Shown here: positions 20,069 through 36,285 of the stretch, piece by piece
Layout of the letters: each line of letters starts with the position of its first letter
How positions within the stretch are numbered: position 1 is the first letter of the stretch
Virus genome (UHGV): UHGV-0187309
Source: a virus
DNA length: 44,350 nt
Reading direction: 5' to 3' (one strand)
Notes under the pieces: model-generated
Database searches by the model: none
The model's input: only the letters and a program-made list of their open reading frames with translations
Told to the model about the DNA's origin: nothing
Translations under genes and position numbers: made by a program

Positions 20069-20374
20069 AAGTAGACTTTTCTCCGTATTTACGCTGTTTT
20101 CCGCAGTTGGGGCAGCGTGGGGCAAGTTTTTTCGGTGGTTATTATTATTACTTCTCTTTATATATATTACTATTTTTACTTGCCCCTACTTGCCCCAAAT
20201 AAATAAAAACAATAGAAAAGATAAGAAGAATAGAGGATTTTCACTGATTTGAACCATTACCCATTTTGCACTGTTTTGAACCTTGCCCGATGCTGTCACT
20301 GACAAAGAGTGTGTAAGCGACAAAGCGTGGCAAGGTCAAAATCCAATAAACAATCATACAGGAGGAACACGAAT

Positions 20375-21469
20375 ATGAGAATCATTACTTCAGAACAGGT
20401 ATCCGCAGGACATCCCGACAAGATCTGTGACCAAATCGCGGATGCCATCGTGACAGACTGCCTTCAGCATGACCGCAGCAGTCGTGTTGCGATAGAGTGT
20501 CTTTTCAAGAACCGCTGTCTTGTGATCGCCGGTGAGCTGACCAGTACCCATGAGCCGGACTACAAGGCTCTGGTGCAGCAGGTGTTCGACCGTATCAACA
20601 ACGGCGGAGCTGAGAACAGCGATGCGGGACTTGACTACAAGCTGGACTTCACCGCCGATGATCTGGACATTGCGATTCTGGTCGATCACCAGAGCAATGA
20701 CATTGCGCTCGGTGTGAATGTCGGCGGTGCAGGAGATCAGGGTATGATGTACGGCTATGCGACCAACGAAACGCCGGAGATGCTCCCGATCCCCTTCGTG
20801 CTGGCTACCAGATTTCTGGAACTGCTGAAAGCCTACCCCTGCCGTATGCTGAAAGCCGATGCAAAGGCACAGGTCAGCTATGACTATGACAGCGGTCGCA
20901 TTACCACCTTCCTCTGCTCGGTGCAGCATACACACGATGTGGATGTTGAGGACTTCAAGCCCATCATCGAAAAGCTGATGGTGAGAACGGCAACCGAATA
21001 CGGGCTGAATACAGACTTTGCAAAGCTCGTCAACCCGACCGGCAGATTTGTCATAGGCAGTTCCTTTGCGGACTGCGGCGTTACCGGACGCAAGCTCGCC
21101 TGCGATACCTATGGCGGTATCGGGCATATCGGCGGCGGTGCAATGTCCGGCAAAGATCCGTCTAAGGTTGACCGCAGCGGCGCATATGCAGCAAGAAAAA
21201 TCGCAAGGGATATCGTCAGCGCCGGATATTCAGACAAGGCAGAGGTGCAGATCGCATACGCCATCGGTGTGGCAGAGCCCGTATCCGTGTATGTAGAGAC
21301 TTTTGGCACGGAGCATCAGGATACGGAGTTCATCAACCAGTATGTTCGTGAGAATTATGACCTCACGCCGAGGGGAATCATCGAAGGGCTGCATCTGCTC
21401 GATGTGGACTATAACGCCATTTCCGCATACGGACACTTCGGAAAACAGAACCTTCCGTGGGAACTATAA
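20375..21469 (+). CDS. metK: S-adenosylmethionine synthetase
   Basis: GHPDKICDQIADAI, GGGAMSGKDPSKVDRSGAYAAR and overall MetK architecture; AGGAGGA RBS. Confidence 0.9.
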   Translation: MRIITSEQVSAGHPDKICDQIADAIVTDCLQHDRSSRVAIECLFKNRCLVIAGELTSTHEPDYKALVQQVFDRINNGGAENSDAGLDYKLDFTADDLDIAILVDHQSNDIALGVNVGGAGDQGMMYGYATNETPEMLPIPFVLATRFLELLKAYPCRMLKADAKAQVSYDYDSGRITTFLCSVQHTHDVDVEDFKPIIEKLMVRTATEYGLNTDFAKLVNPTGRFVIGSSFADCGVTGRKLACDTYGGIGHIGGGAMSGKDPSKVDRSGAYAARKIARDIVSAGYSDKAEVQIAYAIGVAEPVSVYVETFGTEHQDTEFINQYVRENYDLTPRGIIEGLHLLDVDYNAISAYGHFGKQNLPWEL

Positions 21470-21495: not shown

Positions 21496-21537
21496 GGATA
21501 CCCACAAAATGCCCTCTCCCACGACAGTATATGAGGG
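21496..21537 (+). repeat. Copy 2 of the ~43 bp direct repeat seen at 7669-7711
   Basis: GGATACCCACAAAATGCCCTCTCCCACGACAGTATATGAGGGG; lies between metK and the HNH gene. Confidence 0.7.
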
Positions 21538-21632
21538 GCGTTGTTCAGACCGACCACAAACACACTACAAACCAAGCGGGACTGACCGCCCCTATCACTA
21601 TGCAACACCACTGTGGAAAGGAGGCAGAGACA

Positions 21633-21992
21633 ATGCCAAGCAGACCAAAAACACCATGCAGACACCCCGGCTGTGCTGCGCTCGTACCTTATGGCACCAA
21701 GTATTGTGACAAGCACCGTTCTCTCCATCCGGAGGACACACGCTCCGCAGGCAGTCGAGGCTATGGCACCACATGGAACAAGACCCGCAAGCGTTACCTT
21801 GAGACGCATCCGCTGTGCGTGGAGTGCATGAAGCAAGGGCGCTATATCAAGGCGACCGATGTCGATCACATCATGCCGCACCGAGGAGACAATGTTCTCT
21901 TCTGGGATCAGAGCAACTGGCAGAGCCTCTGCCACCGACACCACAGCATCAAGACCCGAAATGAGGATCACACCCCCGAGTACAAGTACTAA
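21633..21992 (+). CDS. HNH endonuclease
   Basis: 119 aa; CxxC pairs plus DVDHIMPHRGDNVLFWDQSNWQSLCHRHH HNH core; AAAGGAGG RBS. Confidence 0.8.
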   Translation: MPSRPKTPCRHPGCAALVPYGTKYCDKHRSLHPEDTRSAGSRGYGTTWNKTRKRYLETHPLCVECMKQGRYIKATDVDHIMPHRGDNVLFWDQSNWQSLCHRHHSIKTRNEDHTPEYKY

Positions 21993-22450
21993 ACGCAAGC
22001 CACACTCACTATCGTTGCAGTTCAGGCAGTCTCAGGGGTGTACCTATGGGCGGGGCTGGGGGCTGGGGTTGCCCGCCGGGGCGGGTTCACTTCTCTGTGT
22101 GAAAGCGAACACAAGACCGTCGGCCCCTCTCGTGTGAAAAAACGCGAATTTGCAAGGGCCCCGGTCATTTGGGACCCTGACAGAGATATATTAGCTGTAA
22201 ATGAAATACTGTGCAGAAAACAGAAAACGCAGATTTTTCGTGCTTTTCCATATGCTGCCGTAGGAAACTGCGGCGGCAGGATACATACAGAGTTTCGTTA
22301 CAAAATGCACTGTAAAACGGCGAATTTACGTCAAAAAGCGATAGAATTAGCACATTTTTAGCGCCAAACCGCATTTTACAGTTTTATTCTTGGCGGAGCC
22401 CGTGTGGATACCGAAAACCGCATAAAATCAGAAGTTTCGAGGTGAATCAG

Positions 22451-22756
22451 ATGACAGATTCTCAAAAATATCAAGTACGAATTATGCGGATGCAGGGCAT
22501 TGGATATAAGGCAATAGCAAGGTCGCTGGGCTTGAAAACCAATCAGGTGCAGCTCTTTTGCAAGGCTCACGGTCTTGCAGGAGACAATCATCTGGTCGAT
22601 GTCAACTATCAAATCTGGTGTCAGCAAAACAACCGCTGTCCGGTCTGCGGTGCAAAGGTCACCCAGCCGAGGACAGGACGGCGAAAACGCTTCTGTTCCG
22701 GACGGTGCAGAACAAGATATTATCGTGAAAAACTGGAGGAATCAAAATGCTTGTAA
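22451..22756 (+). CDS. Small HTH plus zinc-ribbon DNA-binding protein
   Basis: HTH-like GIGYKAIARSLGLKTNQVQLF and Cys4 ribbon CPVCG...CSGRC; GAGGTGA RBS. Confidence 0.65.
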   Translation: MTDSQKYQVRIMRMQGIGYKAIARSLGLKTNQVQLFCKAHGLAGDNHLVDVNYQIWCQQNNRCPVCGAKVTQPRTGRRKRFCSGRCRTRYYREKLEESKCL

Positions 22757-22932
22757 CCGTTTTGTGCCTTACTTACATGATGATCATCATCCTGATCCAT
22801 GCGATCTGGATATCTTCGATCATCAAGCATGACGGGAAATGCCACTACAACGACTGCGGTCACTGTCCGTATGACGCCTGGTGTCCGATGCAGGAGGAAA
22901 AACATGACACTGACAGAGAACTTCATTCGTGA
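22747..22932 (+). CDS. Small hydrophobic/Cys-containing hypothetical protein
   Basis: 61 aa ORF overlapping neighbours; hydrophobic N-terminus LVTVLCLTYMMIIILIHAIWI; weak support. Confidence 0.35.
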   Translation: MLVTVLCLTYMMIIILIHAIWISSIIKHDGKCHYNDCGHCPYDAWCPMQEEKHDTDRELHS

Positions 22933-23389
22933 TGCGATACAGCTTGACAGCGGTGCAGAGGTCATGTACGGCAGCGATCAGATCTATGACACCTACCCCT
23001 GCCGCTTTCCGACTGTCGAGTTCCAGCTCATGGCAACGGATGCACTTGCGGAGGTCGCAGACCGCATCCGAATGGAGAAAGGCTATCTCCCGATGCATCC
23101 GAGGGACGGGCGCACGGACGATGTTGACAATGACGGCTGGTACGACTTTTATATCGGGATTAGCAAGCTCCCCAGCGATCATAAGGAATGCAAACTTGAC
23201 AGCAGCATTAGTTTCGTGGTCGTCAATTCAGATTCCGATGACAACGAGGATATGTACAGCATTGACCTGACTGAAACAGAGCAGGCGTATGTGTATGAAA
23301 TACTGAACCGGCAATGCCGGAGATATCACGGGAAGGACTGTGCCACGCTTCTGGCAGAGTCTGAAAAGGAGCTGATGGATACAGCATGA
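22904..23389 (+). CDS. Hypothetical protein
   Basis: 161 aa from ATG 22904 with CAGGAGGAAA RBS; stop overlaps nrdD start. Confidence 0.65.
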   Translation: MTLTENFIRDAIQLDSGAEVMYGSDQIYDTYPCRFPTVEFQLMATDALAEVADRIRMEKGYLPMHPRDGRTDDVDNDGWYDFYIGISKLPSDHKECKLDSSISFVVVNSDSDDNEDMYSIDLTETEQAYVYEILNRQCRRYHGKDCATLLAESEKELMDTA

Positions 23390-25527
23390 GGATAATAAAA
23401 CGAAACGGCGCTGAGGTGCCGTATGACTGCGAAAAGATACGAGCCGCAATATCAGCGGCAAATGATGAAGTGCCGGAGAAGATATCAGATACAGTGATCG
23501 GATTCATTGTCGGGAATGTAGAAAAACGCTGTCATGCCCTTGCAAGACCTGTCCATGTCGAAGAAGTCCAGGACATGGTTCTTGATGAACTGGACAAGGC
23601 CGAGGCTTACAAACTTGCACGGCACTACAGTGAGTACCGCCTGTGGCATGAGCAGCAGCGCCGTATGAACACCACCGACGGCAAGATTCTCAGTCTGCTG
23701 GAACGCAACAACGAGGAGGCAAAGCAGGAGAACGCCAACAAGAACCCCATCATCAACAGCACGCTCCGTGACTATATGGCGGGAGAAGTCAGTCGGGATA
23801 TATGTCGGCGCTTCCTGTTTCCGGAGGATGTGATCGCCGCCCATGATGACGGCATCATTCATGTGCATGACCTCGACTACATCGCAGAGCCGATGCACAA
23901 TTGCTGTCTGGTGAATCTGGAGGATATGCTTCAAAACGGCACAGTGGTATCCGGTACTATGATTGAGAAGCCGCACAGCTTTTCGACTGCCTGCAATATC
24001 GCAACGCAGATCATTGCACAGGTGGCATCAAATCAGTACGGCGGACAGACGGTATCTCTGGCACATCTTGCGCCTTTCGTGGATATCAGCCGACAGAAAA
24101 TTCGTGCCGAGGTGTTCGAGGATGTGAACTGCGACTGCGGTGCAAAGCTGTCTGAAAAAGAACTGGACTACATCGTAGAAAAGCGCGTGCGACGGGAAGT
24201 CAAGCGAGGCGTACAAACGATCCAGTATCAGATCAACACGCTCCTGACAACCAACGGTCAGACACCGTTCGTGACGGTATTCATGTATCTGGACGAGGCA
24301 CCGGAGGGACAGACCAGAGATGACCTTGCACTCATTATCGAGGAAACGCTGCTTCAGCGTATCGAGGGCGTGAAAAACGAGAAGGGCGTGTGGATCACAC
24401 CGGCATTCCCGAAGCTGATCTATGTTCTCGATGAGGACAACATTCAGCCCGGTTCCAAGTATTACTACCTCACCGAGCTTGCGGCGAAGTGTACCGCAAA
24501 GCGTATGGTTCCCGACTATATTTCCGCAAAGGTGATGAAACGTCTGAAGGGTGATGTGTATGCCTGCATGGGCTGCCGGTCATTCCTGACACCTTCTGCC
24601 GACCACAAATACTACGGCAGATTCAATCAGGGAGTCGTCACGATCAACCTTGTGGATGTTGCGTGTAGCGCAGGCGGAGACGAAGATAAATTCTGGCAGC
24701 TTCTTGATGAACGCTGCGAACTGTGCCGCAAGGCTCTGATGTGCAGGCATGAACGTCTGAAAGGTACGCCGTCCGATGTTGCACCGATCCTCTGGCAGTA
24801 TGGCGCACTTGCGAGACTGAAGAACGGTGAGGTCATTGACAATTTGCTGTATAACAACTACAGCACGATCTCCCTCGGCTATGCCGGCATCGCGGAAATG
24901 ACCTACCGCATGACAGGCTGTTCGCATACAGAGTCGGAGGGAAAATCCTTCGCCATTTCAGTGATGCATTTTCTGAACGATAAGTGCAGCAAATGGAGAG
25001 CTGAAAGCAATATCTCGTTCTCGCTATACGGCACGCCGATGGAATCTGTGACCTACAAATTTGCAAAGTGTCTGCAAAGGCGGCATGGTATTATTCCGCA
25101 CGTCACGGACAGGAGCTACATTACCAACAGCTATCATGTCCATGTGACAGAGCCGATCGACGCCTTCAGCAAGTTGTCCTTTGAAGCGGAGTTTCAGGAG
25201 CTTTCTCCCGGCGGTGCGATTTCGTATGTAGAAGTGCCGAACCTTCAGAACAACATTCCTGCGGTTCTGGCACTCATGAAACACATTTACGAAACGATTT
25301 TATATGCTGAACTCAACACTAAGTCCGACTACTGTCAGGCTTGTGGCTATGACGGGGAGATGCAGATCGTGGAAGAGGACGGCAAGCTGATCTGGGAATG
25401 CCCGAACTGCGGCAACCGTGACCAGCGGACAATGAATGTCTGCCGCCGCACCTGCGGATATCTCGGAACGCAGTTCTGGAATCAAGGGCGCACACAGGAG
25501 ATCGCAGAAAGGGTGATGCACCTGTGA
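23386..25527 (+). CDS. nrdD: Anaerobic ribonucleoside-triphosphate reductase (class III RNR)
   Basis: N-terminal ATP-cone, C-terminal Zn ribbon CQACGY...CPNCG, glycyl-radical motif RRTCGYLG. Confidence 0.9.
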   Translation: MRIIKRNGAEVPYDCEKIRAAISAANDEVPEKISDTVIGFIVGNVEKRCHALARPVHVEEVQDMVLDELDKAEAYKLARHYSEYRLWHEQQRRMNTTDGKILSLLERNNEEAKQENANKNPIINSTLRDYMAGEVSRDICRRFLFPEDVIAAHDDGIIHVHDLDYIAEPMHNCCLVNLEDMLQNGTVVSGTMIEKPHSFSTACNIATQIIAQVASNQYGGQTVSLAHLAPFVDISRQKIRAEVFEDVNCDCGAKLSEKELDYIVEKRVRREVKRGVQTIQYQINTLLTTNGQTPFVTVFMYLDEAPEGQTRDDLALIIEETLLQRIEGVKNEKGVWITPAFPKLIYVLDEDNIQPGSKYYYLTELAAKCTAKRMVPDYISAKVMKRLKGDVYACMGCRSFLTPSADHKYYGRFNQGVVTINLVDVACSAGGDEDKFWQLLDERCELCRKALMCRHERLKGTPSDVAPILWQYGALARLKNGEVIDNLLYNNYSTISLGYAGIAEMTYRMTGCSHTESEGKSFAISVMHFLNDKCSKWRAESNISFSLYGTPMESVTYKFAKCLQRRHGIIPHVTDRSYITNSYHVHVTEPIDAFSKLSFEAEFQELSPGGAISYVEVPNLQNNIPAVLALMKHIYETILYAELNTKSDYCQACGYDGEMQIVEEDGKLIWECPNCGNRDQRTMNVCRRTCGYLGTQFWNQGRTQEIAERVMHL

Positions 25528-25991
25528 ATTACTGCGGTCTGAATAAAAACGATATTGCCAACGGTGAAGGTGTGCGTGTGTCGCTGTTCGTGTCCGGATG
25601 CCGGAATCACTGCATCGGCTGTCACAATCCCGAAGCATGGGATTTCGGCTACGGTCAGCCGTTTACCAAAGAAACCGAAAAAGAGATCATCGAAGCCCTG
25701 CGTCCTTCTTGGATACAGGGCATTTCTATACTCGGCGGTGAACCCTGCGAGGAGGAAAACGAGCGTGTTCTGATACCGTTTCTGAAACGGATAAAACTTG
25801 AGTCTCCGAATTCGGACACTTGGCTGTTCTCCGGATACACCTACGAAATGCTTCAGAATGATGAGATTCTCAAATACATTGATGTGCTTGTGGACGGGCC
25901 GTTCCTGATGGAACAGAAGAACATCTCCCTTGCATTCCGGGGCAGTCGGAATCAACGAATCCTCCGATTAAGAAATGGGGTGCGTGTATGA
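25524..25991 (+). CDS. nrdG: Anaerobic RNR activating protein (radical SAM)
   Basis: CRNHCIGCHN radical-SAM-type Cys motif; size and position immediately after nrdD. Confidence 0.85.
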   Translation: MNYCGLNKNDIANGEGVRVSLFVSGCRNHCIGCHNPEAWDFGYGQPFTKETEKEIIEALRPSWIQGISILGGEPCEEENERVLIPFLKRIKLESPNSDTWLFSGYTYEMLQNDEILKYIDVLVDGPFLMEQKNISLAFRGSRNQRILRLRNGVRV

Positions 25992-26305
25992 GAGCCAGAC
26001 TGAAACCGCCGGGAGATGCTGTCCGCTGCGATGCCTGCGGATGTGCCTTTGTGCCGGAGCCGAAAATGCAGCGTGAGGGAGAGATCGAATACAGCTTCCT
26101 CAACTGTGATTACTGTGGCAAAGCGTATATCGTGTCTGTGACCGATGCCGCACTCCGCCGGAGCATCCGCAAGTACCGGACGCTTGCCGAAAAGCTGAAG
26201 GGCAAGCCGTTGAGTGAAGATACGCTCCGTGAGGTCACGGCGCTGAAGGATGCGAACACAAAAAGAGCCGCAGAGCTGCGGCAGATGTATATTCGGGAGG
26301 GATGA
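25988..26305 (+). CDS. Small zinc-ribbon hypothetical protein
   Basis: CDACGC...CDYCG Cys4; translationally coupled between nrdG and the methyltransferase. Confidence 0.6.
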   Translation: MRARLKPPGDAVRCDACGCAFVPEPKMQREGEIEYSFLNCDYCGKAYIVSVTDAALRRSIRKYRTLAEKLKGKPLSEDTLREVTALKDANTKRAAELRQMYIREG

Positions 26306-26306
26306 G

Positions 26307-27578
26307 ATGAAAACAGCAGAACTTCGCATGATCCCTGTCTCGGAGCTGAAGCCTGCGGAATACAATCCGCGTAAAAAGCTGAAGCCCGGCGACAAGGAAT
26401 ACGAGAAGATCAAAAACAGCATCGAGGAATTCGGCTTTGCCGACCCGCTTGTTGTCAACGCCGACATGACGATCATCGGCGGACACCAGAGACTGACCGT
26501 AGCAACGGCGCTCGGTTACACGGAAGTTCCGTGTGCGGTGGTGGACATCGACAAAGTCCGTGAGAAGGCACTGAACATTGCGCTGAATAAGATCACGGGT
26601 GCATGGGACGAGAATCTTCTGGCGGAACTTCTCGAAGATATCCAGAGCAGCGATTTCGACCTCGGCAAGACCGGCTTTGATCCGCCGGAGATCGAGCAGC
26701 TTTTCAATGCCGTTCATGACAAGCAGGTCAGTGAGGACAGCTTCGATGTGGAGGAGGAGCTGCAAAAGCCGACATTCTCGCAGCCGGGAGATATCTGGAT
26801 TCTCGGCAGGCACAAAGTCATCTGCGGCGATAGTACAATCGCAGAGACATACACCAAGCTGATGGACGGGCAGAAGGCAAACCTCGTCCTGACCGATCCT
26901 CCGTACAATGTGGATGTTGAGGAAACTGCCGGAAAGATCATGAATGACAACATGAGCGACAGTGATTTCTATAGCTTCCTGCTTTCCGCTTACAAGTGTA
27001 TGTATGACAGTCTTGCCGATGACGGCAGCATTTATGTATGGCACGCCGACACCGAGGGGCTGAACTTCCGCAGAGCGTTCAAGGAGGCAGGCTTCCAGCT
27101 TTCTGGCTGCTGTATCTGGAAGAAGAATTCTCTGGTGCTGGGCAGAAGCCCCTATCAGTGGATTCATGAGCCGTGTCTCTTCGGGTGGAAACAGAAGGGC
27201 AAGCATCAGTGGTATGCCGACCGCAAGCAGACAACTGTATGGGAGTATGACAAGCCCAAGAGCAGCCCCGATCATCCGACCACAAAGCCTATCCCGCTGA
27301 TGGCGTACCCGATCAAGAACAGCACCATGACCAACGGCATCGTTCTCGATCCGTTCCTCGGCAGCGGTTCGACACTGATCGCCTGTTGCGAGACAGACCG
27401 TGTTTGTCGGGGCATCGAGCTTGATCCGAAGTTCGTGGATGTCATTGTCAAGAGGTATCTGGCATGGTGCCAAGAGAAGCAGACCGCCGAGGTCGCATAT
27501 GTCATTCGTGATGGACAGAAGCTCACCTATGAGGAGGCTATCGCAGCGATGCCGCAGGGCGGTGATGCAGTTGAGTGA
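26307..27578 (+). CDS. ParB-like nuclease-domain / DNA amino-methyltransferase fusion (N6-adenine or N4-cytosine)
   Basis: N-terminal ParB-like segment (IPVSELKPAEYNPRK...GGHQR); methyltransferase motif IV TDPPY and motif I DPFLGSGST near the C-terminus. Confidence 0.85.
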   Translation: MKTAELRMIPVSELKPAEYNPRKKLKPGDKEYEKIKNSIEEFGFADPLVVNADMTIIGGHQRLTVATALGYTEVPCAVVDIDKVREKALNIALNKITGAWDENLLAELLEDIQSSDFDLGKTGFDPPEIEQLFNAVHDKQVSEDSFDVEEELQKPTFSQPGDIWILGRHKVICGDSTIAETYTKLMDGQKANLVLTDPPYNVDVEETAGKIMNDNMSDSDFYSFLLSAYKCMYDSLADDGSIYVWHADTEGLNFRRAFKEAGFQLSGCCIWKKNSLVLGRSPYQWIHEPCLFGWKQKGKHQWYADRKQTTVWEYDKPKSSPDHPTTKPIPLMAYPIKNSTMTNGIVLDPFLGSGSTLIACCETDRVCRGIELDPKFVDVIVKRYLAWCQEKQTAEVAYVIRDGQKLTYEEAIAAMPQGGDAVE

Positions 27579-28350
27579 TGTGAAGTGTGTATTATATCAC
27601 GACAACTTCCAAAACTTCAAAGGCTACAGCATCCCGAAAGCGCAGCTCGTCATCGCTGACATCCCGTACAACATCGGCGGCGATTTTTACGCAAGCCGCC
27701 CCGACTGGTATGTGGACGGTGACAATCAGAACGGCGAAAGCAGCAAAGCACATAAGGCGGCATTCCATACAGATTACAGCTTTAACATTGCTGAATACTT
27801 CGCCTTCTGCAACCGACTGCTCAAAAAAGAGCCGCCAAAAGGTGAAAAGGATGCGCCGTGCATGATCGTGTTCTGTGCCTTTCAGCAGATACCGGAAGTC
27901 ATCCGGCAGGCGGAGAAATACGGCTTCAAGAAGTATCAGTTTTTGTGTTTTATGAAGAATTACAGTCCGCAGGTGTTGAAGGCGAACATGAGGATCGTGG
28001 GCGCAACGGAATACGCTCTGGTGCTGTACCGGGGCAAGCTGCCGAAATTCCGAAACACGGATGAGAATGGCAAACACCACATGATCTTCGACCATTTTGA
28101 CTGGATGCGGGACGGCAAGGATATCCCGAAGATACATCCTTCGCAGAAGCCGGTAAATCTCCTGAAACGGCTGATCGGGATATTTACCGACGAGGGTGAT
28201 GTGGTCATCGATCCCTGCGCCGGTTCCGGCTCAACGCTGCGTGCGGCGAGGGAGCTTGGCAGACACAGCTACGGCTTTGAAGTCAGCCGGGATTTTTATA
28301 ATAAAGCCTGTGAACTGATGCTTGGGGAGGATACCGATGACGAAGCATGA
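27565..28350 (+). CDS. DNA amino-methyltransferase (N6-adenine or N4-cytosine)
   Basis: ADIPYN (DPPY-like motif IV), C-terminal DPCAGSGST motif I; start ATG 27565 overlapping the upstream gene. Confidence 0.8.
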   Translation: MQLSDVKCVLYHDNFQNFKGYSIPKAQLVIADIPYNIGGDFYASRPDWYVDGDNQNGESSKAHKAAFHTDYSFNIAEYFAFCNRLLKKEPPKGEKDAPCMIVFCAFQQIPEVIRQAEKYGFKKYQFLCFMKNYSPQVLKANMRIVGATEYALVLYRGKLPKFRNTDENGKHHMIFDHFDWMRDGKDIPKIHPSQKPVNLLKRLIGIFTDEGDVVIDPCAGSGSTLRAARELGRHSYGFEVSRDFYNKACELMLGEDTDDEA

Positions 28351-28582
28351 ATGTGCGGTCGTGACCGCTTACACAGAGATTTCTATGCTCAAGGGCGACG
28401 ATCTGAAATATCTGTATGACTATCTTTCCGGCTTTATCGGCAGACCGGTGTATACACACGAGATTTCTGCTGTGGTGATGGCTTACAGAGAGCAGATCAG
28501 GGAGGACTTCCTCGATCTGTGCAGGAACGCAAAGGAGGCGGATGATGGATCAGAAACACTTGACTCTCGGCAGCTTATTTGA
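28337..28582 (+). CDS. Small hypothetical protein
   Basis: 81 aa ORF from ATG 28337; overlaps both neighbouring genes; no recognisable motif. Confidence 0.45.
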   Translation: MTKHECAVVTAYTEISMLKGDDLKYLYDYLSGFIGRPVYTHEISAVVMAYREQIREDFLDLCRNAKEADDGSETLDSRQLI

Positions 28583-31145
28583 CGGCTCCGGTGGCTTTCC
28601 GCTTGGCGGCATCCTTGCAGGGATCGAGCCGAAGTGGAGCAGCGAAATTGAACCATTCCCGGTGCTTGTCACGCACAAGCGGCTGCCGCAGGTGAAGCAC
28701 TACGGCGATGTATCCAAACTGAACGGAGCAGAGCTTCCGCCGGTGGATATCATCACCTTCGGCAGCCCGTGTCAGGATCTGTCCATAGCGGGCAAGCGCG
28801 CCGGAATCCATGACGGTGATCGGTCAAACCTGTTCTTTCAGGCGATCCGCATCATCAAAGAAATGAGGGATGCAACAAATGGACGATATCCGCGATACTG
28901 CGTCTGGGAAAATGTCCCCGGCGCTTTCTCATCCAACGGAGGAAACGACTTCAAGGCTGTCCTCGAAGCAGTTATCGGAGTTAAAGAAAAAGGGATCGAG
29001 GTGCCTGCGCCTGAAAATCACAGATGGGCAAAATCAGACGTATATCTGGGAGACGGATGGAGCGTGGCTTACCGAGTTTTCGATGCTCAATACTGGGGTG
29101 TCCCCCAACGCAGAGCAAGAATCTACCTTGTCGCAGATCTTGCTGGTGGAAGTGCCGGAGAAGTATTATTTAAGTCCGAAGGCGTGTCTGGGTATACTCC
29201 GCAGGGCTTCCGTGCGTGGCAAGGAGCTGCCGGAGGTGCTGAAGAAGGCACTGGAGAGACAGGCGGGCGGTCTGACGCTGGAGGTGGAACCCTCTGCCTG
29301 AATACACAGGGCAACAGCGGCGTCGGCATCACCGAGAACAAGGCTCTCGCACTGGTCGCACAGGATCATGGCAATCATCCGGCTGTGCTTCATGCGGTCG
29401 GTATCGACGGCTACAATGCTGCGGTCACCGATGATACGGCAGCAACGCTTGGTGTGAACTGCGGAATGTCCACAGGCAGAAACGGTGTCCTGCAGGCGGC
29501 GGGATTTTCCACAGAACACAGTGCAAAAGCAAGGAGCATCGGCTACGAGGAAGAGGTATCTCCCACACTTCGAGCCGGTGTTGTTCCGGCGGCAATGGAG
29601 TTATATGAAAATCATGGGCAGGACAGCAGATTCAGAGGACCTTTGGATGTAGCACAGCCTGTGACTGCTACCTACGGCATGGGCGGCAACAATCAGCCGC
29701 TTGTGGTAGAGAACAATCCCACGGACGGCAGAGCGAAGATCAATCCCGACGGTGTGTTTCAGACGCTCTGCGGACGAGCCGGAACAGGCGGAAACAACAC
29801 GCCGCTTGTTGCTGAACCGGTCACGCTGAAAATCAGGTCGGGATGTGAGGGCGGTGGCAAGGGTGCTTTATGGCAGACCGACAAGTCTGCTACGCTCGGC
29901 ACAAACAATGACCAGAGTGTATTTGTTCCGTTCGTCAAGGGAACACGTCCGCACTCTGCTGAAGAGGGGCAAACATGGAAACCCGGCGAGGTCGCCAATA
30001 CACTGAATACCTTTGATGTCGGTGAAAGTCGCTGCAATGAACTTGTGGTGGAAGAGCCGCAGATCAGGGCTTTCGGTGTATGCAGCAAGCATTCCAATGC
30101 GATGATGTCCGACAATCCGCACAGCGGATTCTATGAGGCGACCACAAGCAGAACGCTCGACCAAAGTGGTGGAAATTCTGTGACATCGAATCAGGGCGGC
30201 ATCTGCGTGGTAGCACCTGCGCCTGAAACCTTCGATGTGCGTTTCACATCAGACGGTACAAAAAACGCTCGTGGGCATTGCTATCCGACAGACATCTCCC
30301 GATGCCTTGATACGAGCGAGGGATCGCCAGACTCGAATCACGGCGGTGTCGCTGTGGTGGCTCTTGAACCGGGGGCTGCATCACGTGTCGGCGGTCATGT
30401 ATACAGTGACGGCAAAAGCGGTACGCTTCGAGCCAATGCCGGCGATAATCAGCAGGCTGTTGTGGTCGCCGAGCCGGAGACCTATGCTCTGCAAGGCTCG
30501 ATGATCGGTCGTGCCGACAAGAACGGTCCGCAGGGTGATGGCATCAACGAGGATGTGTGCTTTACGCTCAATACATCGGACAGACACGCCATTGCCGCAC
30601 CTGATCCGTCCTTCACAATTTCCCGCGACAACCATTTTGCCGTTTCGGAGGATGTATCCGTTACAGCCGTGGCAAGAGGCCCTGCGGCAGTCGCAGCACC
30701 GGCAGACCACTATTGCACCAGTAAGAATTCGCATCATACGGTCGCCGCCCATGAGCAGGCAAACACGCTGGTCGCTTCCGACTGGAAGGATCCGCCGCTT
30801 GTGAACGACCTTCCGAATGACGAGCCAGTATATATCGTTCGCCGCTTGACTCCGGTTGAGTGCGCCAGATTGCAGGGATTCCCTGACTGGTGGTGTGCCG
30901 ACCTTGCAATTACTGATCCTTCCGATGAGGAGATCGCCTTCTGGACGGAGGTCTGGGAGACATGGCGGCAGGTCACAAATCCCAAGGGCAAGCCGAAAAC
31001 GGAAAAGCAGATCCGCAAATGGCTGGCTGATCCGTACACGGATTCAGCGGAGTACAAGCTGTGGGGCAACGGTGTCTCAGAGCCGGTCGTATACTTCGTG
31101 CTTTCCGGCATCGCATGGGCAGCGCAGAGAGATACACAAAAGTGA
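28542..31145 (+). CDS. DNA cytosine-5 methyltransferase with an unusually long, internally repetitive variable (target-recognition) region
   Basis: Motif I LFDGSGGF, motif IV GSPCQDLS, motif VI ENVPG in first ~130 aa; motifs IX/X (RRLTPVECARLQGFPDWW ... LWGNGVSEPVVYF) only in the last ~100 aa; ~600 aa in between with recurring TL-containing modules. True start may be ATG 28545. Confidence 0.85.
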   Translation: MMDQKHLTLGSLFDGSGGFPLGGILAGIEPKWSSEIEPFPVLVTHKRLPQVKHYGDVSKLNGAELPPVDIITFGSPCQDLSIAGKRAGIHDGDRSNLFFQAIRIIKEMRDATNGRYPRYCVWENVPGAFSSNGGNDFKAVLEAVIGVKEKGIEVPAPENHRWAKSDVYLGDGWSVAYRVFDAQYWGVPQRRARIYLVADLAGGSAGEVLFKSEGVSGYTPQGFRAWQGAAGGAEEGTGETGGRSDAGGGTLCLNTQGNSGVGITENKALALVAQDHGNHPAVLHAVGIDGYNAAVTDDTAATLGVNCGMSTGRNGVLQAAGFSTEHSAKARSIGYEEEVSPTLRAGVVPAAMELYENHGQDSRFRGPLDVAQPVTATYGMGGNNQPLVVENNPTDGRAKINPDGVFQTLCGRAGTGGNNTPLVAEPVTLKIRSGCEGGGKGALWQTDKSATLGTNNDQSVFVPFVKGTRPHSAEEGQTWKPGEVANTLNTFDVGESRCNELVVEEPQIRAFGVCSKHSNAMMSDNPHSGFYEATTSRTLDQSGGNSVTSNQGGICVVAPAPETFDVRFTSDGTKNARGHCYPTDISRCLDTSEGSPDSNHGGVAVVALEPGAASRVGGHVYSDGKSGTLRANAGDNQQAVVVAEPETYALQGSMIGRADKNGPQGDGINEDVCFTLNTSDRHAIAAPDPSFTISRDNHFAVSEDVSVTAVARGPAAVAAPADHYCTSKNSHHTVAAHEQANTLVASDWKDPPLVNDLPNDEPVYIVRRLTPVECARLQGFPDWWCADLAITDPSDEEIAFWTEVWETWRQVTNPKGKPKTEKQIRKWLADPYTDSAEYKLWGNGVSEPVVYFVLSGIAWAAQRDTQK

Positions 31146-31222
31146 ACGCATAACGTGCCCGTTTTGAAACGATGAAACGAAAACTCCCGAATCTGCGTTA
31201 CTTTGATTTCGCAAAGATACAC

Positions 31223-31405
31223 TCATTCAGATTTCTTGTCTCCGCCAAGCTCGATCTTTCCGTGCTTTTCCTCATATTTTTCAATGCAGTCACGGATCAG
31301 GATCAGAACCTGACTGTTGGCAGAACGACCTTCGTAATCGGCAACAACGTGAAGTTTATCAAGCATCTCCTGTTCGATACGGATGGATACACTTTTAATA
31401 GCCAT
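31223..31405 (-). CDS. Ribbon-helix-helix (CopG/Arc/MetJ-like) DNA-binding protein
   Basis: 60 aa; MAIKSVSIRIEQEMLDKL N-terminal beta-strand plus helices typical of RHH; only minus-strand gene in a long plus-strand block. Confidence 0.7.
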   Translation of the reverse strand: MAIKSVSIRIEQEMLDKLHVVADYEGRSANSQVLILIRDCIEKYEEKHGKIELGGDKKSE

Positions 31406-31518
31406 AAAACAACTTCCTTTCAGATATATTATGACTTTATTTTAGACCTGTTTTGTGGTATAATGTTTGAAATGGATATAAAGTGTATCTAAAATATATC
31501 TATAAGAAGTTGTACGAT

Positions 31519-31857
31519 ATGAAAATAGCAATTATTGGCTCACGGGGACTTCATGTGAATGACCTTGAACGGTATCTTCCGGAAGATGTCACAGAAATCG
31601 TCAGCGGAGGAGCAAGGGGCATTGATTCGGATGCGCGGGCATACGCACAGGCACACGGCATTCCGCTGAAGGAGTTTCTGCCGGATTATGAACGCTTCGG
31701 CAGGAGCGCCCCGCTGAAACGGAATCTTGAGATCATCGCTTATGCCGATGTGGTGCTTGCATTCTGGGACGGACAGTCACGCGGCACGAAATATGTGATA
31801 GACCATTGCCGGGAACAGCACGTTCCGGTCAGGGTTTTCGCACCGAGAAAGAAATAG
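31519..31857 (+). CDS. SLOG-superfamily (DprA/LOG-like, DUF2493-like) small Rossmann-fold protein
   Basis: KIAIIGSRG ... VSGGARGIDSDA ... AFWDGQSRGT pattern shared with DprA/LOG-type domains; extended -10 TGGTATAAT promoter just upstream. Confidence 0.65.
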   Translation: MKIAIIGSRGLHVNDLERYLPEDVTEIVSGGARGIDSDARAYAQAHGIPLKEFLPDYERFGRSAPLKRNLEIIAYADVVLAFWDGQSRGTKYVIDHCREQHVPVRVFAPRKK

Positions 31858-31861
31858 TAAT

Positions 31862-31935
31862 AAAGAAGCCATGCAGCAAATTGTGAACATTCTGATACTA
31901 AATCAGATGTTCTGCCGCAGGGCTTCTTTCTATTC
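31862..31935 (+). terminator. Long hairpin terminator after the SLOG gene
   Basis: AAAGAAGCC ... GGCTTCTTTC inverted repeat with inner CTGAT/ATCAG hairpin, followed by T-rich tract. Confidence 0.5.
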
Positions 31936-31991
31936 TGTACTATGCACAATCTAAAGGGCAGACACGCCCCGTACATTCTCCGTTTTACAGT

Positions 31992-32035
31992 CTTGCATTC
32001 CGGGGCAAAAGACGGTAATATGTGACTACGAAAAC
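31992..32035 (+). promoter_or_regulatory. Cassette promoter P1 (CTTGCA-18-TAATAT) with conserved GTGAC downstream box
   Basis: First of nine near-identical promoter units; precedes ATG 32090. Confidence 0.6.
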
Positions 32036-32089
32036 GCCGCAGCCCAACGCACAAGGCTGAGGGGCGGCAGTAAAAACGGAGGTAATCAT

Positions 32090-32998
32090 ATGGAAATCAA
32101 GTTCAATATTGAAAAGAGCCAGCGCAAGGCACTGGCACAGAAAATCGGCGAGCTGACAGGAGCAGAGGTCAAGTACCTCGGTGTACCGGGCTGCAGATAC
32201 CAGATCGACTTCTTCACCCTGGACAAAAACGCAGTCCTCAGTTTCAGCGACCGCATCGACACAGATATCGTGGAGAAGGTACTGAATGGGCTTGCAGAGG
32301 CAGGATATGAAAGCAAAACAGTAGCACCGCCGGAAGAAACGGATGCTTCGGCTGAATCAGAGCCGGATATCCCTGACGAACCGAGCAGCGGATTTCCGCT
32401 GCTCGCAAGCATCAGCTTCCCGATTGCAGAGCACACGGTGCAGAGCCTTACAAACCTTATCTGCATGATCCACTCCCGCGGCGCACTTCTCAGCAAGGCG
32501 ACCGGCGGACAGTTCTTCGCAGACAAGAGCCTCGCCGATGCGATCCTCGATGACAAGACCTTCCGCAGCATCCACGAGCTTATCGCCTACATCAGAGTAT
32601 GGGAGGAAACGAATCCCGAACTGAAGGGCATCCGTTTCGCCGATGACAAGCTGATCTTTGACGGCTTCGGTGCAGCGCAGGATGCCGAAACGGTGCAGAC
32701 CTTCACCAAGCTCGCCACAGCCATGAACAGGATGGCGATCACGCAGAAACGTGTGCAGGCAAAGGATGTCGATGACAGCAACGAAAAGTACGCACTCCGC
32801 ATCTGGCTGATCCGCCTTGGGCTGAACGGCGCAGACTGCAAGGTTGACCGCAAGCGCCTCATGGCTCCGCTTTCCGGACACACCGCATTCCGCAACGATG
32901 CGGAGCGTGTGCGCTGGGAGGCAAAGCAAAAGGCAAAGCGTGATGCTGCCAGAACCGAACTGACCGAGGAGGATGAAAACGATGCAGTTTCCGAATGA
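32090..32998 (+). CDS. Hypothetical protein
   Basis: 302 aa; ACGGAGGTAA RBS; no recognisable motif. Confidence 0.75.
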   Translation: MEIKFNIEKSQRKALAQKIGELTGAEVKYLGVPGCRYQIDFFTLDKNAVLSFSDRIDTDIVEKVLNGLAEAGYESKTVAPPEETDASAESEPDIPDEPSSGFPLLASISFPIAEHTVQSLTNLICMIHSRGALLSKATGGQFFADKSLADAILDDKTFRSIHELIAYIRVWEETNPELKGIRFADDKLIFDGFGAAQDAETVQTFTKLATAMNRMAITQKRVQAKDVDDSNEKYALRIWLIRLGLNGADCKVDRKRLMAPLSGHTAFRNDAERVRWEAKQKAKRDAARTELTEEDENDAVSE

Positions 32999-33230
32999 AA
33001 GACAGCTCAGAGCCTTGCGGGAGCGTTATCCCGCAGGCACCCGCATCCGACTGAAGCATATGGATGACCCTTATGCACCCGTACCGCCCGGCACGGTCGG
33101 CGAGGTTCAGATGGTTGATGACGGCGGCAACATACACATGGTCTGGGAGAATGGCAGAACGCTCTCCCTTATAGACGGTGTCGATGATTTCCAGGTCATT
33201 TCTGACCGCAATGGGGGCTCCGGAAAATAA
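32982..33230 (+). CDS. DUF4314-like small protein
   Basis: PAGTRIRLKHMDDPYAPVPPGTVGEVQMVDDGGNIHMVWENGRTLSLIDGVDDF matches the DUF4314 pattern as I recall it; start at ATG 32982. Confidence 0.65.
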   Translation: MQFPNERQLRALRERYPAGTRIRLKHMDDPYAPVPPGTVGEVQMVDDGGNIHMVWENGRTLSLIDGVDDFQVISDRNGGSGK

Positions 33231-33341
33231 GAGATCCTATTCCATTGTATCCGAGTATACCATAGAATTTCAAGTATATCAAGTGTACACATACACCAGA
33301 TATGAGCAATGTATTTTCCTCGATATTCTGTGGTTTTAGCG

Positions 33342-33402
33342 GCTTGCTATATCCTCCGAAAGACGGTAATATGTGACACAACGGAAGGGCAAACGCCCAC
33401 CG
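33342..33402 (+). promoter_or_regulatory. Cassette promoter P2 (CTTGCT-19-TAATAT) plus conserved leader hairpin
   Basis: TAATATGTGACACAACGGAAGGGCAAACGCCCACCGAAAA leader. Confidence 0.6.
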
Positions 33403-33427
33403 AAAAACCGAATCGGAGGATACCAAA

Positions 33428-34372
33428 ATGACTGAGAAAACCGCACAGCAGATCAACAGAATGAAGGAGCAGACCATCGGGGTTGAGATCGAGATGAACA
33501 ACATCACCCGCAAGGCTGCCGCAAAGCTCGCCGCCGACTTCTTCGGCACGAACCGCTACGAGGACACGGCCTGCCGCAACGGCTACGAAACCTACAGTGC
33601 TTGGGACGCACAGGGACGCGAGTGGAAATTCCAGAAGGACGTCAGCATCGCAGGCCCCGACAGCGAAAAGTGCGAACTGGTCACACCGATCCTGCACTAC
33701 GCAGACATCGAAACCCTGCAGGAGCTTGTGAGAAGGCTCAGAAAGGCAGGAGCGCGCAGTGATTACACGCGGGGATGTGGAGTCCACTGCCACATTGGAG
33801 CCCAGGGACACACACCGCAGAGCCTCAGAAACCTCGCAAACCTTATGGCAAGCCACGAAACCCTGATCGCCGAGGCAATCAGAGTAGACCAGAGCAGAAT
33901 GCACCGCTACTGCAGAACAGTTGACCCGAGATTCCTTGAACAGCTCAACCGCAAAAAGCCCACCACGATGGCACAGCTTGCGGACATCTGGTACGGCGCA
34001 CAGGGCTGCGAATACGGCAGAACCCACCACTACAACGACAGCCGCTATCACATGCTCAACCTCCACGCTACCTTCACCAAAGGCACGGTCGAGTTCAGAC
34101 TTTTCCAGTTCGCACCGCCTTCCAACGGCAAGCAGAACGGGCTCCACGCAGGCAAGCTCAAGAGCTACATTCAGCTCTGCCTCGCAATGAGCCAGATGGC
34201 AAAGGACCTGCGGAGCGCCAGCCCCAAGGAACAGCAGAAGGAAAACAAAAAGTTCGCCATGCGGACTTGGCTGATGAGAATGGGATTCATCGGGGATGAA
34301 TTCGCAACGGCGAGAGAGGTCCTCACTGAGAACCTTACGGGCGACAACAGCTTCCGCTTCGGCAGATCTTAA
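33428..34372 (+). CDS. Putative amidoligase (glutamine-synthetase-like fold, Amidoligase_2-type)
   Basis: 314 aa; GVEIEMNN (ExE motif) and GCGVHCHIGAQGH (HxH motif) as in GS-like amidoligases of phages and conjugative elements; family call from memory. Confidence 0.7.
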   Translation: MTEKTAQQINRMKEQTIGVEIEMNNITRKAAAKLAADFFGTNRYEDTACRNGYETYSAWDAQGREWKFQKDVSIAGPDSEKCELVTPILHYADIETLQELVRRLRKAGARSDYTRGCGVHCHIGAQGHTPQSLRNLANLMASHETLIAEAIRVDQSRMHRYCRTVDPRFLEQLNRKKPTTMAQLADIWYGAQGCEYGRTHHYNDSRYHMLNLHATFTKGTVEFRLFQFAPPSNGKQNGLHAGKLKSYIQLCLAMSQMAKDLRSASPKEQQKENKKFAMRTWLMRMGFIGDEFATAREVLTENLTGDNSFRFGRS

Positions 34373-34636
34373 AGGCCTGCCCTTCGGGGCGGAAGAACAA
34401 GCGGAACGGCACGGCGGCGCACACAGCCGCCACGGTCTCGGCTCTCGCCTCGGTCGGTGCTTCTGCTTCGCAGAGGTTGCCACTGGCAACCCGCACCCCC
34501 GTGTGTGGCGGAAAGGGTATCCTCCGAATCGGTATCCCATCTCAGTCAACCGCGCCACACAGCGCAAATGTAGGCAAGGCATAAAATGCACAACATACGG
34601 CACAGAATCGCCCTCGATGATCTGTTCATTTACCCG

Positions 34637-34666
34637 CTTGATAATGCCGCCGAAATGAGTTAACAT
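34637..34666 (+). promoter_or_regulatory. Cassette promoter P3 (CTTGAT-18-TAACAT)
   Basis: Same -35/18/-10 geometry as other cassette promoters; precedes ATG 34706. Confidence 0.5.
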
Positions 34667-34705
34667 AGCACTACCGCAAGGAAAAAACGCAAAGGAGAAC
34701 ATAGC

Positions 34706-35173
34706 ATGAACAAGAAAAAATACTACATAGCCTACGGCAGCAACCTCAACATCCGCCAGATGCGATTCCGCTGCTCAGGCGCAAAGCCCATCGGCATTTC
34801 CGCGATTCCTGACTACGAACTGCTCTTCAAGGGCAGCAAGACGGGAGCGTACCTCACCATCGAGCCGAAGGACGGCGGGCTTGTTCCGGTCGCCGTGTGG
34901 GAAGTGACAGCCGACGATGAGAAGCACCTCGACATCTACGAGGGCTACCCGAACTTCTACTACAAGAAGGAAGTCCGCCTGCCAATCAGGCTGGCAAACG
35001 GCAAGACCAAAAAGGTCACGGCATTTGTCTACATCATGCACGAGGAGCGTGAGATTGCGATCCCGTCAATGACCTACATCCGCACCTGCGAGGAAGGCTA
35101 CCGCAACTTCGGCTTCGACACCAAGTTCCTTGATGCCGCCTACGAGATCAGCGCAAAGGAGGTACAGCGATGA
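34706..35173 (+). CDS. Gamma-glutamyl cyclotransferase-like (GGCT/AIG2-like) protein
   Basis: N-terminal YYIAYGSNLN signature and YEGYP Glu-containing motif. Confidence 0.8.
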   Translation: MNKKKYYIAYGSNLNIRQMRFRCSGAKPIGISAIPDYELLFKGSKTGAYLTIEPKDGGLVPVAVWEVTADDEKHLDIYEGYPNFYYKKEVRLPIRLANGKTKKVTAFVYIMHEEREIAIPSMTYIRTCEEGYRNFGFDTKFLDAAYEISAKEVQR

Positions 35174-35370
35174 AAGACCGCAACAAAGAGCCGCACATCT
35201 GCCCGAAATGCGGGCAGGCGTACACCGCCCGACCAGCTCTTTCCCGCGTGGATAACAGCCCAATCTGCCCCGACTGCGGAACGCGTGAAGCGCTTGAAAG
35301 CATCGGCGTCGGACGCGAGGAACAGGACAAGATTCTCGGCATCATCCACGAGAAGTACGAAGGCGAATAA
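35170..35370 (+). CDS. Small zinc-ribbon protein
   Basis: 66 aa; CPKCG...CPDCG Cys4; start overlaps the GGCT-like stop (ATGA). Confidence 0.6.
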   Translation: MKDRNKEPHICPKCGQAYTARPALSRVDNSPICPDCGTREALESIGVGREEQDKILGIIHEKYEGE

Positions 35371-35378
35371 GTCGGCAC

Positions 35379-35402
35379 AAAGGGGCGTTACAGCCCCTTT
35401 CC
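35379..35402 (+). terminator. Hairpin AAGGGGC-GTTACA-GCCCCTT after the zinc-ribbon gene (candidate terminator)
   Basis: 7 bp GC-rich stem with weak T-tract. Confidence 0.4.
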
Positions 35403-35526
35403 GCATTCTCAGGGATAACTTATCCCCCACTTTCCGGGCGTGACACGGCGCGTTCTGGCGCAAACTATGTACCTGTTCAGCTTGCTGAAAACGGCGATTC
35501 TTCTACGATTTATTTTGCACATAGGC

Positions 35527-35590
35527 GTGGACTTTTCAGGCAAAAGGCGGTAGTATGTGACACAACGGAAGGGCAGACAGCCCACCGGAA
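35527..35590 (+). promoter_or_regulatory. Cassette promoter P4 (GTGGAC-18-TAGTAT) plus conserved leader hairpin
   Basis: TAGTATGTGACACAACGGAAGGGCAGACAGCCCACCGG. Confidence 0.55.
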
Positions 35591-35613
35591 TTCATAACAT
35601 GGAGGATACGAAC

Positions 35614-36084
35614 ATGAACGACAGCTACTTTGAGGAGATGACCTTCCAGTGCGCCGCCTATGAACGCGCCAAAAAGGAGCGCGCCGAGCGCAAGGCTCAG
35701 ATTGCCGAAGCCCACGGCTACGACAGCCCGGAGGTGGACGCTTGGTACGCTGAGGAGAAGGCGGCAGGTCCTTACCCCTACAGCGGCAATGAGATGAAAG
35801 CCTACTGGGTGTACAAGATGCGCCGCGAGAACGACGGTGACGAGTTCGAGATGAGCGATTACTGCTGGGACAAGGAATTCCACGATTTCATCGAAACGCT
35901 CCGCAAGCTAGGCATCACCGAGTTCACGATCACCAATCAGAGCACGGCGCTGATGGAGAACATCTACGGATTTATTGCAGAAGGCTGCACGATGGTCGGA
36001 ACGCACACCATCACCAAGAAGAGCCTGCGCTGGGGCGAGGAAGAATACGAAACGGCACAGGGCATCCTTTTCAAGGTGAACTGA
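35614..36084 (+). CDS. Hypothetical protein
   Basis: 156 aa from ATG 35614 (GGAGGATACGAAC RBS). Confidence 0.7.
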   Translation: MNDSYFEEMTFQCAAYERAKKERAERKAQIAEAHGYDSPEVDAWYAEEKAAGPYPYSGNEMKAYWVYKMRRENDGDEFEMSDYCWDKEFHDFIETLRKLGITEFTITNQSTALMENIYGFIAEGCTMVGTHTITKKSLRWGEEEYETAQGILFKVN

Positions 36085-36092
36085 TATCGACA

Positions 36093-36270: not shown

Positions 36271-36285
36271 ACGGAGGATAACACC

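Follow-up and report, generated by a model that had tools for sequence, protein, structure and literature searches.

The window analysed here is the whole 44,350-nt stretch of the UHGV virus genome UHGV-0187309, a segment of a temperate-phage genome with nearly all its genes on the + strand. Within it, a 458-bp gap at 21993-22450 separates the gene of a packaging-type HNH endonuclease from that of a helix-turn-helix/zinc-ribbon (HTH/Zn) protein, and the question is what this gap is for. The initial annotation noticed a G-quadruplex (G4) motif and inverted repeats in it, and implied that they control the HTH/Zn gene. We find that the gap is composed of two modules, module 1 at about 22031-22185 and module 2 at about 22250-22410. 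From sequence comparison, the G-rich motif is most likely part of a cohesive-end packaging site (cos) of a type already known, and the inverted repeat is part of a probable RNA hairpin. Altogether, we consider it quite probable that the gap is a cos site plus a conserved region of RNA-like hairpins, which makes it an ordinary if useful landmark rather than a G4 switch.

The gap is clearly functional. Poor conservation had been named beforehand as the observation to count against a function, and the opposite was found. In all 23 viral loci retrieved via relatives of the downstream HTH/Zn protein, nearly the full length of the gap can be aligned, at 68-95% nucleotide identity. That it holds no real open reading frame (ORF), as also noticed initially, was borne out. 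In 15 of the 16 other alignment rows, the 95%-identical L001 included, a stop or frameshift breaks a 107-aa ORF with a GTG start at 22038-22361, while the exception, L003, is identical to the window across the ORF. Therefore the gap is non-coding, and a coding role for this interrupted ORF was rejected. Length differences between relatives are moreover often not multiples of 3.

The most conserved 20-nt block in the gap is AAGACCGTCGGCCCCTCTCG, and a 17-nt pattern from it, AGACCGYCGNCCCCTYT, was searched in IMG/VR and found at no fewer than 119 loci (≥119). A profile of window positions 22025-22190 matched at least 123 loci, 86 of them unique, with the matches spanning ~90-160 nt, far beyond the 17-mer. 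Module 1 is an element of ~100 nt present in more than 120 phage contigs, and Ruminococcus flavefaciens 007c carries it on contig NZ_ATAX01000017. The gene-proximal block TTGGCGRAGCCNGTGTGG is instead confined to contigs with the HTH/Zn gene, where it lies upstream of that gene family; nine additional viral matches fell inside unrelated genes and were discarded as chance.

The two halves can be told apart also in a metagenome set of the subfamily (JGI/ENA, 41 unique contigs, 40 scored for the G4 motif and 39 for TTGGCGRAGCCNGTGTGG). The G4 motif is present in 29/40, and TTGGCGRAGCCNGTGTGG lies downstream of the cos core in 19/39 and is absent from the other 20/39. Thus the 5′ half with the G-run and the 3′ half with the inverted repeat are separable. 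Megablast and blastn searches of the window's own region against GenBank phages gave no match, and GenBank records were reached only with the element of a low-GC relative as the query.

Module 1 is most likely a phage cos site, because its core lines up with known phage ends and its predicted overhang resembles that of Paenibacillus larvae phages. The predicted cosN core, AAGAC/CGTCGGCCC/CTCT with slashes for the cuts, is at 22113-22130 and matches the profile with 80 bits (E 2e-24). Its predicted 9-nt 3′ overhang CGTCGGCCC is at 22118-22126, where the window reads CACAAGAC/CGTCGGCCC/CTCTCGTGTGAAAAAACGCG. The core is single-copy in the 44 kb, as this is the one profile match and the next best scores 2.9 bits. 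The core pattern is GAC/CG-N4-CCC/CTCT, with GACCG invariant in every element seen. A right-flank scan found both GACCG and CCCCTCT invariant and the four bases between them variable (CCGC, CGGC, GCGC, TCGG, CAGC and others), a pattern to be expected if the nick positions are constrained more tightly than the overhang interior.

We compared this core with an annotated cos, that of phage phi105, and with the ends of deposited records, those of phi4I1, BtCS33 and Paenibacillus phage Diva. phi105 reads GCCGGAGACC/GCGCTCC/CCTCCCC, its 'cos' annotated on the 7-mer and preceded by GGAGACC. phi4I1 reads CCTGGAGAC/CGCCGCCTA/GCTTTCCGTGCAAAAAG, with the 9-mer at both record ends and GGAGAC before it, and the BtCS33 record begins 3 nt after the phi4I1 start. 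Diva reads CCCCAAC/CGACTGCCC/ and then CCATCG. The P. larvae cos phages have a 9-nt 3′ overhang, CGACTGCCC or CGACGGCCC, an HNH gene as the last gene and a small terminase gene (terS) starting 50 bp after base 1 (PMC6070908). The window's CGTCGGCCC equals CGACGGCCC at 8/9 positions.

When the profile of the 86 elements was run against the circularised junctions of phi105 (793 nt) and phi4I1 (791 nt), the best match was exactly at the cut in each of these two independent phages, with E values of 1e-3 and 2e-3, respectively. The likeness extends beyond the core. In phi105, phi4I1, Diva and the window alike, the cut is preceded at ~35-45 bp by a G:C tract and followed by an A-tract or small palindrome, and phi4I1 carries after its end a CCGTGCAAAAAGTTCG similar to the window's right flank. 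A core of (G)AC/CG-N-CCC with a GC-rich 7-9-nt overhang, and a P27-type small terminase with a related large terminase (TerL), are shared with phi105, BtCS33, phi4I1 and the P. larvae phages. In phi105, BtCS33/phi4I1 and the P. larvae Fern/Harrison/Vegas cluster, as in the window, the site directly follows a packaging-type HNH gene.

The window differs from them in two respects. On the top strand, its G:C tract is rich in G and lengthened into a G4 motif of four runs, in contrast to the C-rich tract of the Bacillales phages. Its cos and terS are separated by 17.7 kb of accessory genes (NrdDG, methylases and amidoligases) and not by ~50 bp. Moreover, unlike for the phi105 and P. larvae type, the ends in the window's lineage are predictions from sequence.

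As to gene context, the HNH gene upstream (21633-21992, + strand; Pfam HNH, PHROG 144; translation MPSRPK...TPEYKY and stop) ends 121 nt before the core, and an HNH homologue ends 24-125 nt upstream of it in 62 of 77 related loci. Downstream, the nearest gene of some size encodes a ParB-methylase in 19 loci, a Terminase_4 small terminase in 15 and TerL in 1, and terS lies 3.9 kb downstream of the element in Streptococcus phi1207.3. Many linear phage records, among them phi105, phi4I1, mEp234, OP1 and PY54, end on the right with an HNH homologue as their last gene. Over its C-terminal half, the window's TerL is 28-37% identical to the TerL proteins of mEp234 and Staphylococcus phage 47, two cos phages, and to those of phi105 and P. 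larvae phages.

Purified small cos-adjacent HNH enzymes nick CG/GT, that is AC/CG on the other strand (PMC3592412). On the bottom strand, this nick site coincides with the left edge of the predicted overhang, and it fits a 3′ overhang. From these similarities we infer the nick positions, the enzyme for each strand and the packaging direction as follows. The P27-type small terminase would recruit the large terminase and the HNH nuclease encoded upstream, and these two would together nick 9 nt apart. HNH would cut the bottom strand at CG/GT, the top-strand AC/CG boundary 22117/22118, and the terminase would cut the top strand after 22126, leaving CGTCGGCCC as the 3′ overhang. Packaging would proceed rightwards, with the HTH/Zn gene side entering first.

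Several observations weigh against the cos assignment. The junction matches of the profile are weak, at 8-9 bits, and Diva gave no profile match and was aligned by eye. A right-flank pattern was used to search IMG/VR and the JGI/ENA metagenomes for contigs that start at the predicted cut, and none was found among ~160 viral and metagenome contigs with the right-hand flank; contig ends in the IMG/VR and JGI assemblies scatter with no pile-up there. The GenBank relatives are all prophage-ordered records. Hence the assignment is built on homology and context and not on physical ends. The terminase genes of the window are also not adjacent to the site, and phi105 has an overhang of 7 nt that is shifted by 1 nt, so the nicks predicted here may be misplaced by ~1 base. 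The phi1207.3 and 'Ca. Heliusvirales' literature that we searched makes no mention of cos or packaging ends.

The left boundary of module 1 is at 22031-22047 (+ strand), where CTCAGGGGTGT is an inverted copy of ACACCCC(T/C)GAG. One copy of the pair, at 21970-21980, forms the last HNH codons (..TPE..), and the CTCAGGGGTGT copy at 22031-22041 opens the module. They are complementary at 11/11 positions in 8 of 15 relatives, with the ~50 nt between them variable or deleted. The pair may form a hairpin spanning the stop codon, or it may mark a boundary of recombination. The widely conserved left flank, defined by the alignment of the 86 elements, lies at 22072-22096 (+ strand), ~22-46 nt ahead of the cut. 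It is the C-run/G-run palindrome CCCGCCGGGGCGGG followed by an (A)ATCTCT-type block, here CTTCTCT.

The right flank from the same alignment (22131-22185, + strand) comprises a palindrome/A-tract CGTGTGAAAAAACGCG, then AATTTGCAA and then GGGCCCC...GGGACCC, and the palindrome has register-shifting variants among the 86 elements. By analogy, this segment is a candidate for terminase binding in the manner of cosB. The lambda cos is arranged as cosQ-cosN-cosB and has a 12-nt 5′ overhang and IHF sites, with gpNu1/gpA acting without an HNH partner. A similar tripartite layout may be seen in module 1, with a left flank at the last-packaged end, a nicking core and a right flank toward the first-packaged genes. 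The cosQ-like and cosB-like roles are analogies only and no homology of the flanks to lambda is claimed.

The G-run GGGCGGGGCTGGGGGCTGGGG itself fits the canonical G4 pattern as noticed initially, although its position is 22048-22068 (+ strand), 6 nt left of the 22054-22074 first given. Neither strand of the 44,350 nt has another (G3+N1-7)x3 G3+ motif, the first-order Markov expectation being 0.34. A G4 motif lies 43-53 nt upstream of AGACC in 16 of 83 viral loci, at 43-46 nt in 15 of the 16. The wider family keeps a single G-tract only, its left flank being a C-run/G-run palindrome (CCCC-N-GGGG.GGGT) and then AATCTCT, and the Bacillales cos sites have no four-run motif. In the Ruminococcus/Oscillospiraceae subfamily, this flank is extended leftwards by GGGGC(T) repeats into the G4 motif. 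The G-run is thus a subfamily-specific extension of the left cos flank, the one at the right chromosome end.

We read the G-run as a duplex flank of the putative cos, because the C-rich tract of the Bacillales phages and the near-zero covariation argue against an RNA helix. Cutting would place it 50-70 bp inward of the right end of the virion chromosome, where it would serve as a flanking recognition or termination sequence, cosQ-like in role by analogy, and not as a promoter element. The four-run tract, on the strand ending 3′ at the right terminus, may be more than a passive flank. It could fold into the predicted G4 or be bound, and so stop the terminase when packaging ends or shield the first-exposed end from host exonucleases. 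We take the tandem GCTGGGG to resemble the E. coli Chi GCTGGTGG in the active orientation. However, GCTGGGG is not over-represented in the window (4 found, 4.9 expected), so the window sequence lends no support to a Chi-like role.

Module 2 was analysed by RNAalifold on the gene-proximal half, with pairing scored on 17 distinct sequences including five from metagenome-assembled genomes (MAGs). All its features are on the + strand. The predicted hairpin H1 (GCUGCCGUAGGAAACUGCGGCGGCAG, 22253-22278) folds with -21.3 kcal/mol (z -5.6) and shows compensatory changes in 8 of its 10 pairs. It is followed by a predicted composite long hairpin of ~120 nt at 22284-22406, with a closing helix H2 (22284-22300 / 22391-22406), a helix H3 nested inside it (22309-22317 / 22374-22382) and an apical helix H4 (22320-22327 / 22344-22351). 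H2 pairs at 96.5%, and its changes comprise five one-sided switches (U.G to U-A or C-G) besides one compensatory pair. Several H2 pairs are G.U, so H2 exists on the + strand only. H3 is 80% paired with four compensatory pairs.

Overall, 85.7% of the cells pair compared with 39-48% when the partners are slid, for a structure derived from the same few and related sequences. The covariation score is 0.206 against 0.138 for shuffles, and 0 of 500 shuffles reach it. Independent minimum-free-energy folds of five homologues share the same closing helix, and four of the five have z of -2.2 to -3.75. The minus strand of the window folds with z -1.2 and lacks the closing helix.

H3 is the inverted repeat noticed initially. 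Its arms exist, the left arm ACTGTAAAA at 22309-22317 (first placed at 22311-22319) and the right arm TTTTACAGT at 22374-22382, and they are 100% complementary and 56 nt apart. By our estimate, ~0.4 such perfect 9-mer inverted repeats are expected by chance in 458 nt, so the repeat is not improbable in itself. As DNA, it is 9/9 only in the four closest relatives and 5-7/9 in the other alignable relatives, so that half-sites and dyad symmetry are not conserved at the DNA level. We take it as part of an RNA structure and not as a protein operator, because the RNA pairs are kept at 80% and are nested in a larger hairpin. The direct repeat noticed with it is real, with a common exact core AAACCGCAT at 22366-22374 and 22415-22423 (+ strand). 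Both copies lie outside the predicted helices, ACCGCA is kept in nearly all relatives, and the single-stranded AAACCGCAU motifs are possible protein-binding sites.

We give even chances to module 2 being a leader or processing structure of the + strand operon mRNA before the HTH/Zn gene. We infer that 22250-22410 would be transcribed with the + strand operon and fold into H1 and the 120-nt composite hairpin including the TTTTACAGT inverted repeat. This leader would then act in processing, stability or translation control of the HTH/Zn gene operon. A functional analogy is offered by the RNase III-type processing hairpins of polycistronic phage mRNAs (T7 early region, lambda), likewise long and irregular intergenic coding-strand hairpins between co-oriented genes. 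Module 2 has no sequence or Rfam relationship to them, and we do not claim membership.

Other findings speak against such a leader. The module 2 sequences make up only 3-5 lineages, and the test of the structure used the very sequences from which it had been derived. One of the five homologue folds, L106, has z +1.03, and the MAG variants L228 and L232 lose H1 and break 1-2 H2 pairs. A promoter and terminator scan of 21500-23000 found no promoter-like or terminator-like site inside the gap; its three terminator-like matches were outside the gap and on the - strand. Rfam gave nothing at gathering score in the whole window and nothing but E ~9 noise in 21900-22550. The 120-nt hairpin with its two single-stranded AAACCGCAU may be an undescribed cis-regulatory RNA for the accessory operon at the left chromosome end. 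We think both this and an active role of the G tract at the chromosome end unlikely.

The gap has three other conceivable explanations. As a promoter/operator of the HTH/Zn gene, it would use the G4 as a switch and the repeats as binding sites of the gene's own product. It lies directly upstream of a gene of DNA-binding type, ACCGCAT is repeated 49 nt apart and conserved, and the gene-proximal half always accompanies the HTH/Zn gene. Nevertheless, about half of the subfamily has the G-run module but lacks the upstream block of the gene, and in the wider family the module precedes terS or methylase genes. The differences within the inverted repeat and H2 are transitions that keep the + strand RNA pairs, while the repeat falls to 5-7/9 as DNA, and the promoter scan of the gap found no sigma-70-like promoter. 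The comparative data thus disagree with the control of the HTH/Zn gene by G4 and operator implied by the initial annotation, as the G-run tracks the HNH-linked cos element, and we hold this explanation improbable. A replication origin is far less probable still. It would be made of AT-rich DNA with iteron-like repeats (AAAACG..GA.TTT at 22224 and 22314) and a GC-rich clamp by the replication module. In line with it, primase/helicase, SNF2 and DNA polymerase genes lie upstream, and AAAACGSNGAWTTT has two exact copies at 22224-22237 and 22314-22327, against a window-wide expectation of 0.22 at ≤1 mismatch. The significance of this test is uncertain, since it is post hoc with a pattern derived from the same copies. 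There are however only these two exact copies, 90 nt apart, no GC-skew switch occurs at the gap, and in very different phages the conserved core goes with HNH and terminase genes and not with those of replication. The AAAACGSNGAWTTT copies could be terminase-binding repeats or bending tracts; looser A-tract/GC/T-tract copies are seen at 22135 and 22343.

The third explanation takes the G-rich half as a structured non-coding RNA, in which GGGGCGGG(TC) pairs with (GA)CCGxCGxCCCC and closes a variable-hairpin domain. Most of the 86 elements have complementary versions of the two blocks, hairpin potential is frequent in the ~25 nt between them despite differing sequences, and the whole gap folds with z -2.8. 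Yet RNAalifold finds compensatory changes in 2 of 32 pairs and a slightly unfavourable covariation term of +0.93 kcal/mol, and the middle of the core varies with no matching change in the G block. Near-identical sequences such as L048 and L084 differ by breaks of the inner stem that are not compensated, and Rfam gave no match up to E 10. The corresponding tract of phi105, phi4I1 and Diva is rich in C on the same strand, hence these phages lack the helix but keep the cut-site core. The helix between the G block and the core was rejected for the scant covariation, the G block unresponsive to core changes and the C-rich Bacillales tract, and we regard such an RNA as quite improbable, if somewhat less so than the origin.

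The preferred reading of module 1 as a cos site extends to relatives outside the subfamily. The same element is found in Streptococcus phi1207.3, phi-m46.1 and Javan phages and in gut 'Ca. Heliusvirales' NatCom phages, where that of phi1207.3 reads AAGAC CGACGCCCC CTCA.... The gene order MetK-HNH-element-x-ParB methyltransferase-C5 methyltransferase-terS is shared with phi1207.3, Javan124 and relatives. These Streptococcus and Heliusvirales elements differ from the window's by having neither the G4 extension nor the HTH/Zn leader module. In the phi1207.3, Javan and Heliusvirales records, the element has no annotation or is covered by a 'hypothetical protein' call. Many of the GenBank PV036xxx NatCom records have the cos-like element inside a 'hypothetical protein' coding sequence (e.g. 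PV036434.1, 40013-40104), which is probably an over-call. In the high-GC relatives L031, L202 and L222, 2-3 tandem units of ~38-45 nt, each with its own hairpin (GGACTTCTCC...GGAGAAGTCC type), lie 150-450 nt upstream of the cos cores in place of the adjacent HNH gene.

As a probable cos of a known type, the site would be no surprise to a specialist, but it is useful to annotate and orient widespread phages. It offers a concrete and testable genome-end position for a large and little-studied group of temperate Firmicutes phages, including Ruminococcus/Oscillospiraceae prophages, the 'Ca. Heliusvirales' relatives from the gut and the Streptococcus phi1207.3/Javan elements, with carriers of macrolide-resistance genes among the latter. 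Current records leave the element unannotated or mis-call it as a small protein. On sequence comparison, the GACCG-N4-CCCC core is common to phages of Bacillus, Paenibacillus, Streptococcus and rumen Clostridia, which suggests that the cutting chemistry of HNH plus terminase constrains cos sequences over this range. Searches for the core could help to orient such genomes. A modest new lead comes from the RNA-like hairpins.

Around the gap, the + strand genes are in the order of SNF2 helicase, D5-type primase/helicase, S-adenosylmethionine synthetase (MetK, 20309-21469), HNH, the gap and HTH/Zn, and then NrdD, NrdG, ParB-N6 methylase, C5 methylase, amidoligases, terS and TerL. The HTH/Zn gene (ATG at 22451, stop at 22756, + strand) is preceded by a ribosome-binding site GAGGTG at 22439-22444 (+ strand) and belongs to PHROG 2308, a family of unknown function. 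Its protein has weak matches to YacG-type zinc ribbons, while no PDB relative and no NCBIfam assignment were found for it, and a similarity to the phi105 zinc-ribbon ORF20 was dismissed as insignificant (E 0.047).

The cargo between cos and terS, at 22799-37700, is unusually large. It contains genes for NrdD/NrdG, the ParB-N6 methylase, a C5 methylase of 867 aa, a gamma-glutamyl cyclotransferase, a protein with a GTP-binding domain and DUF6900 and DUF3846 proteins, together with two amidoligase-like genes and a 196-aa ORF of no family. Should the cos call hold, the whole cargo lies at the left end of the virion chromosome, and the methylase and nucleotide-metabolism cargo would be placed at the extreme left end directly after cos.

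The P27-family small terminase gene (39877-40371, + strand; Pfam Terminase_4, TIGR01558) is followed by the TerL gene (40371-43037, + strand; PHROG TerL). A terminator-like hairpin with a T-run (GGCTTGCAGCACGCAGGCCTTTTCTTT) at 39839-39865, ~10 nt upstream of the small terminase start, could separate the accessory operon from the packaging/structural operon. TerL has 888 aa, and the Streptococcus Javan TerL matches it in two pieces that skip residues ~100-450. These residues match mycobacteriophage proteins annotated as HNH endonuclease, DarB-like or helicase-like, and a homologue in mycobacteriophage Phaux, annotated as exonuclease, spans the full TerL length. By these matches, the window's TerL looks like it carries an intein or inserted domain.

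The window has no tRNAs. At 4370-6298, it encodes a 642-aa protein with an IrrE/ImmA-type M78 peptidase domain and a C-terminal Cro/C1-type HTH. An anti-repressor protease and a repressor, usually a pair, are here fused in one polypeptide.

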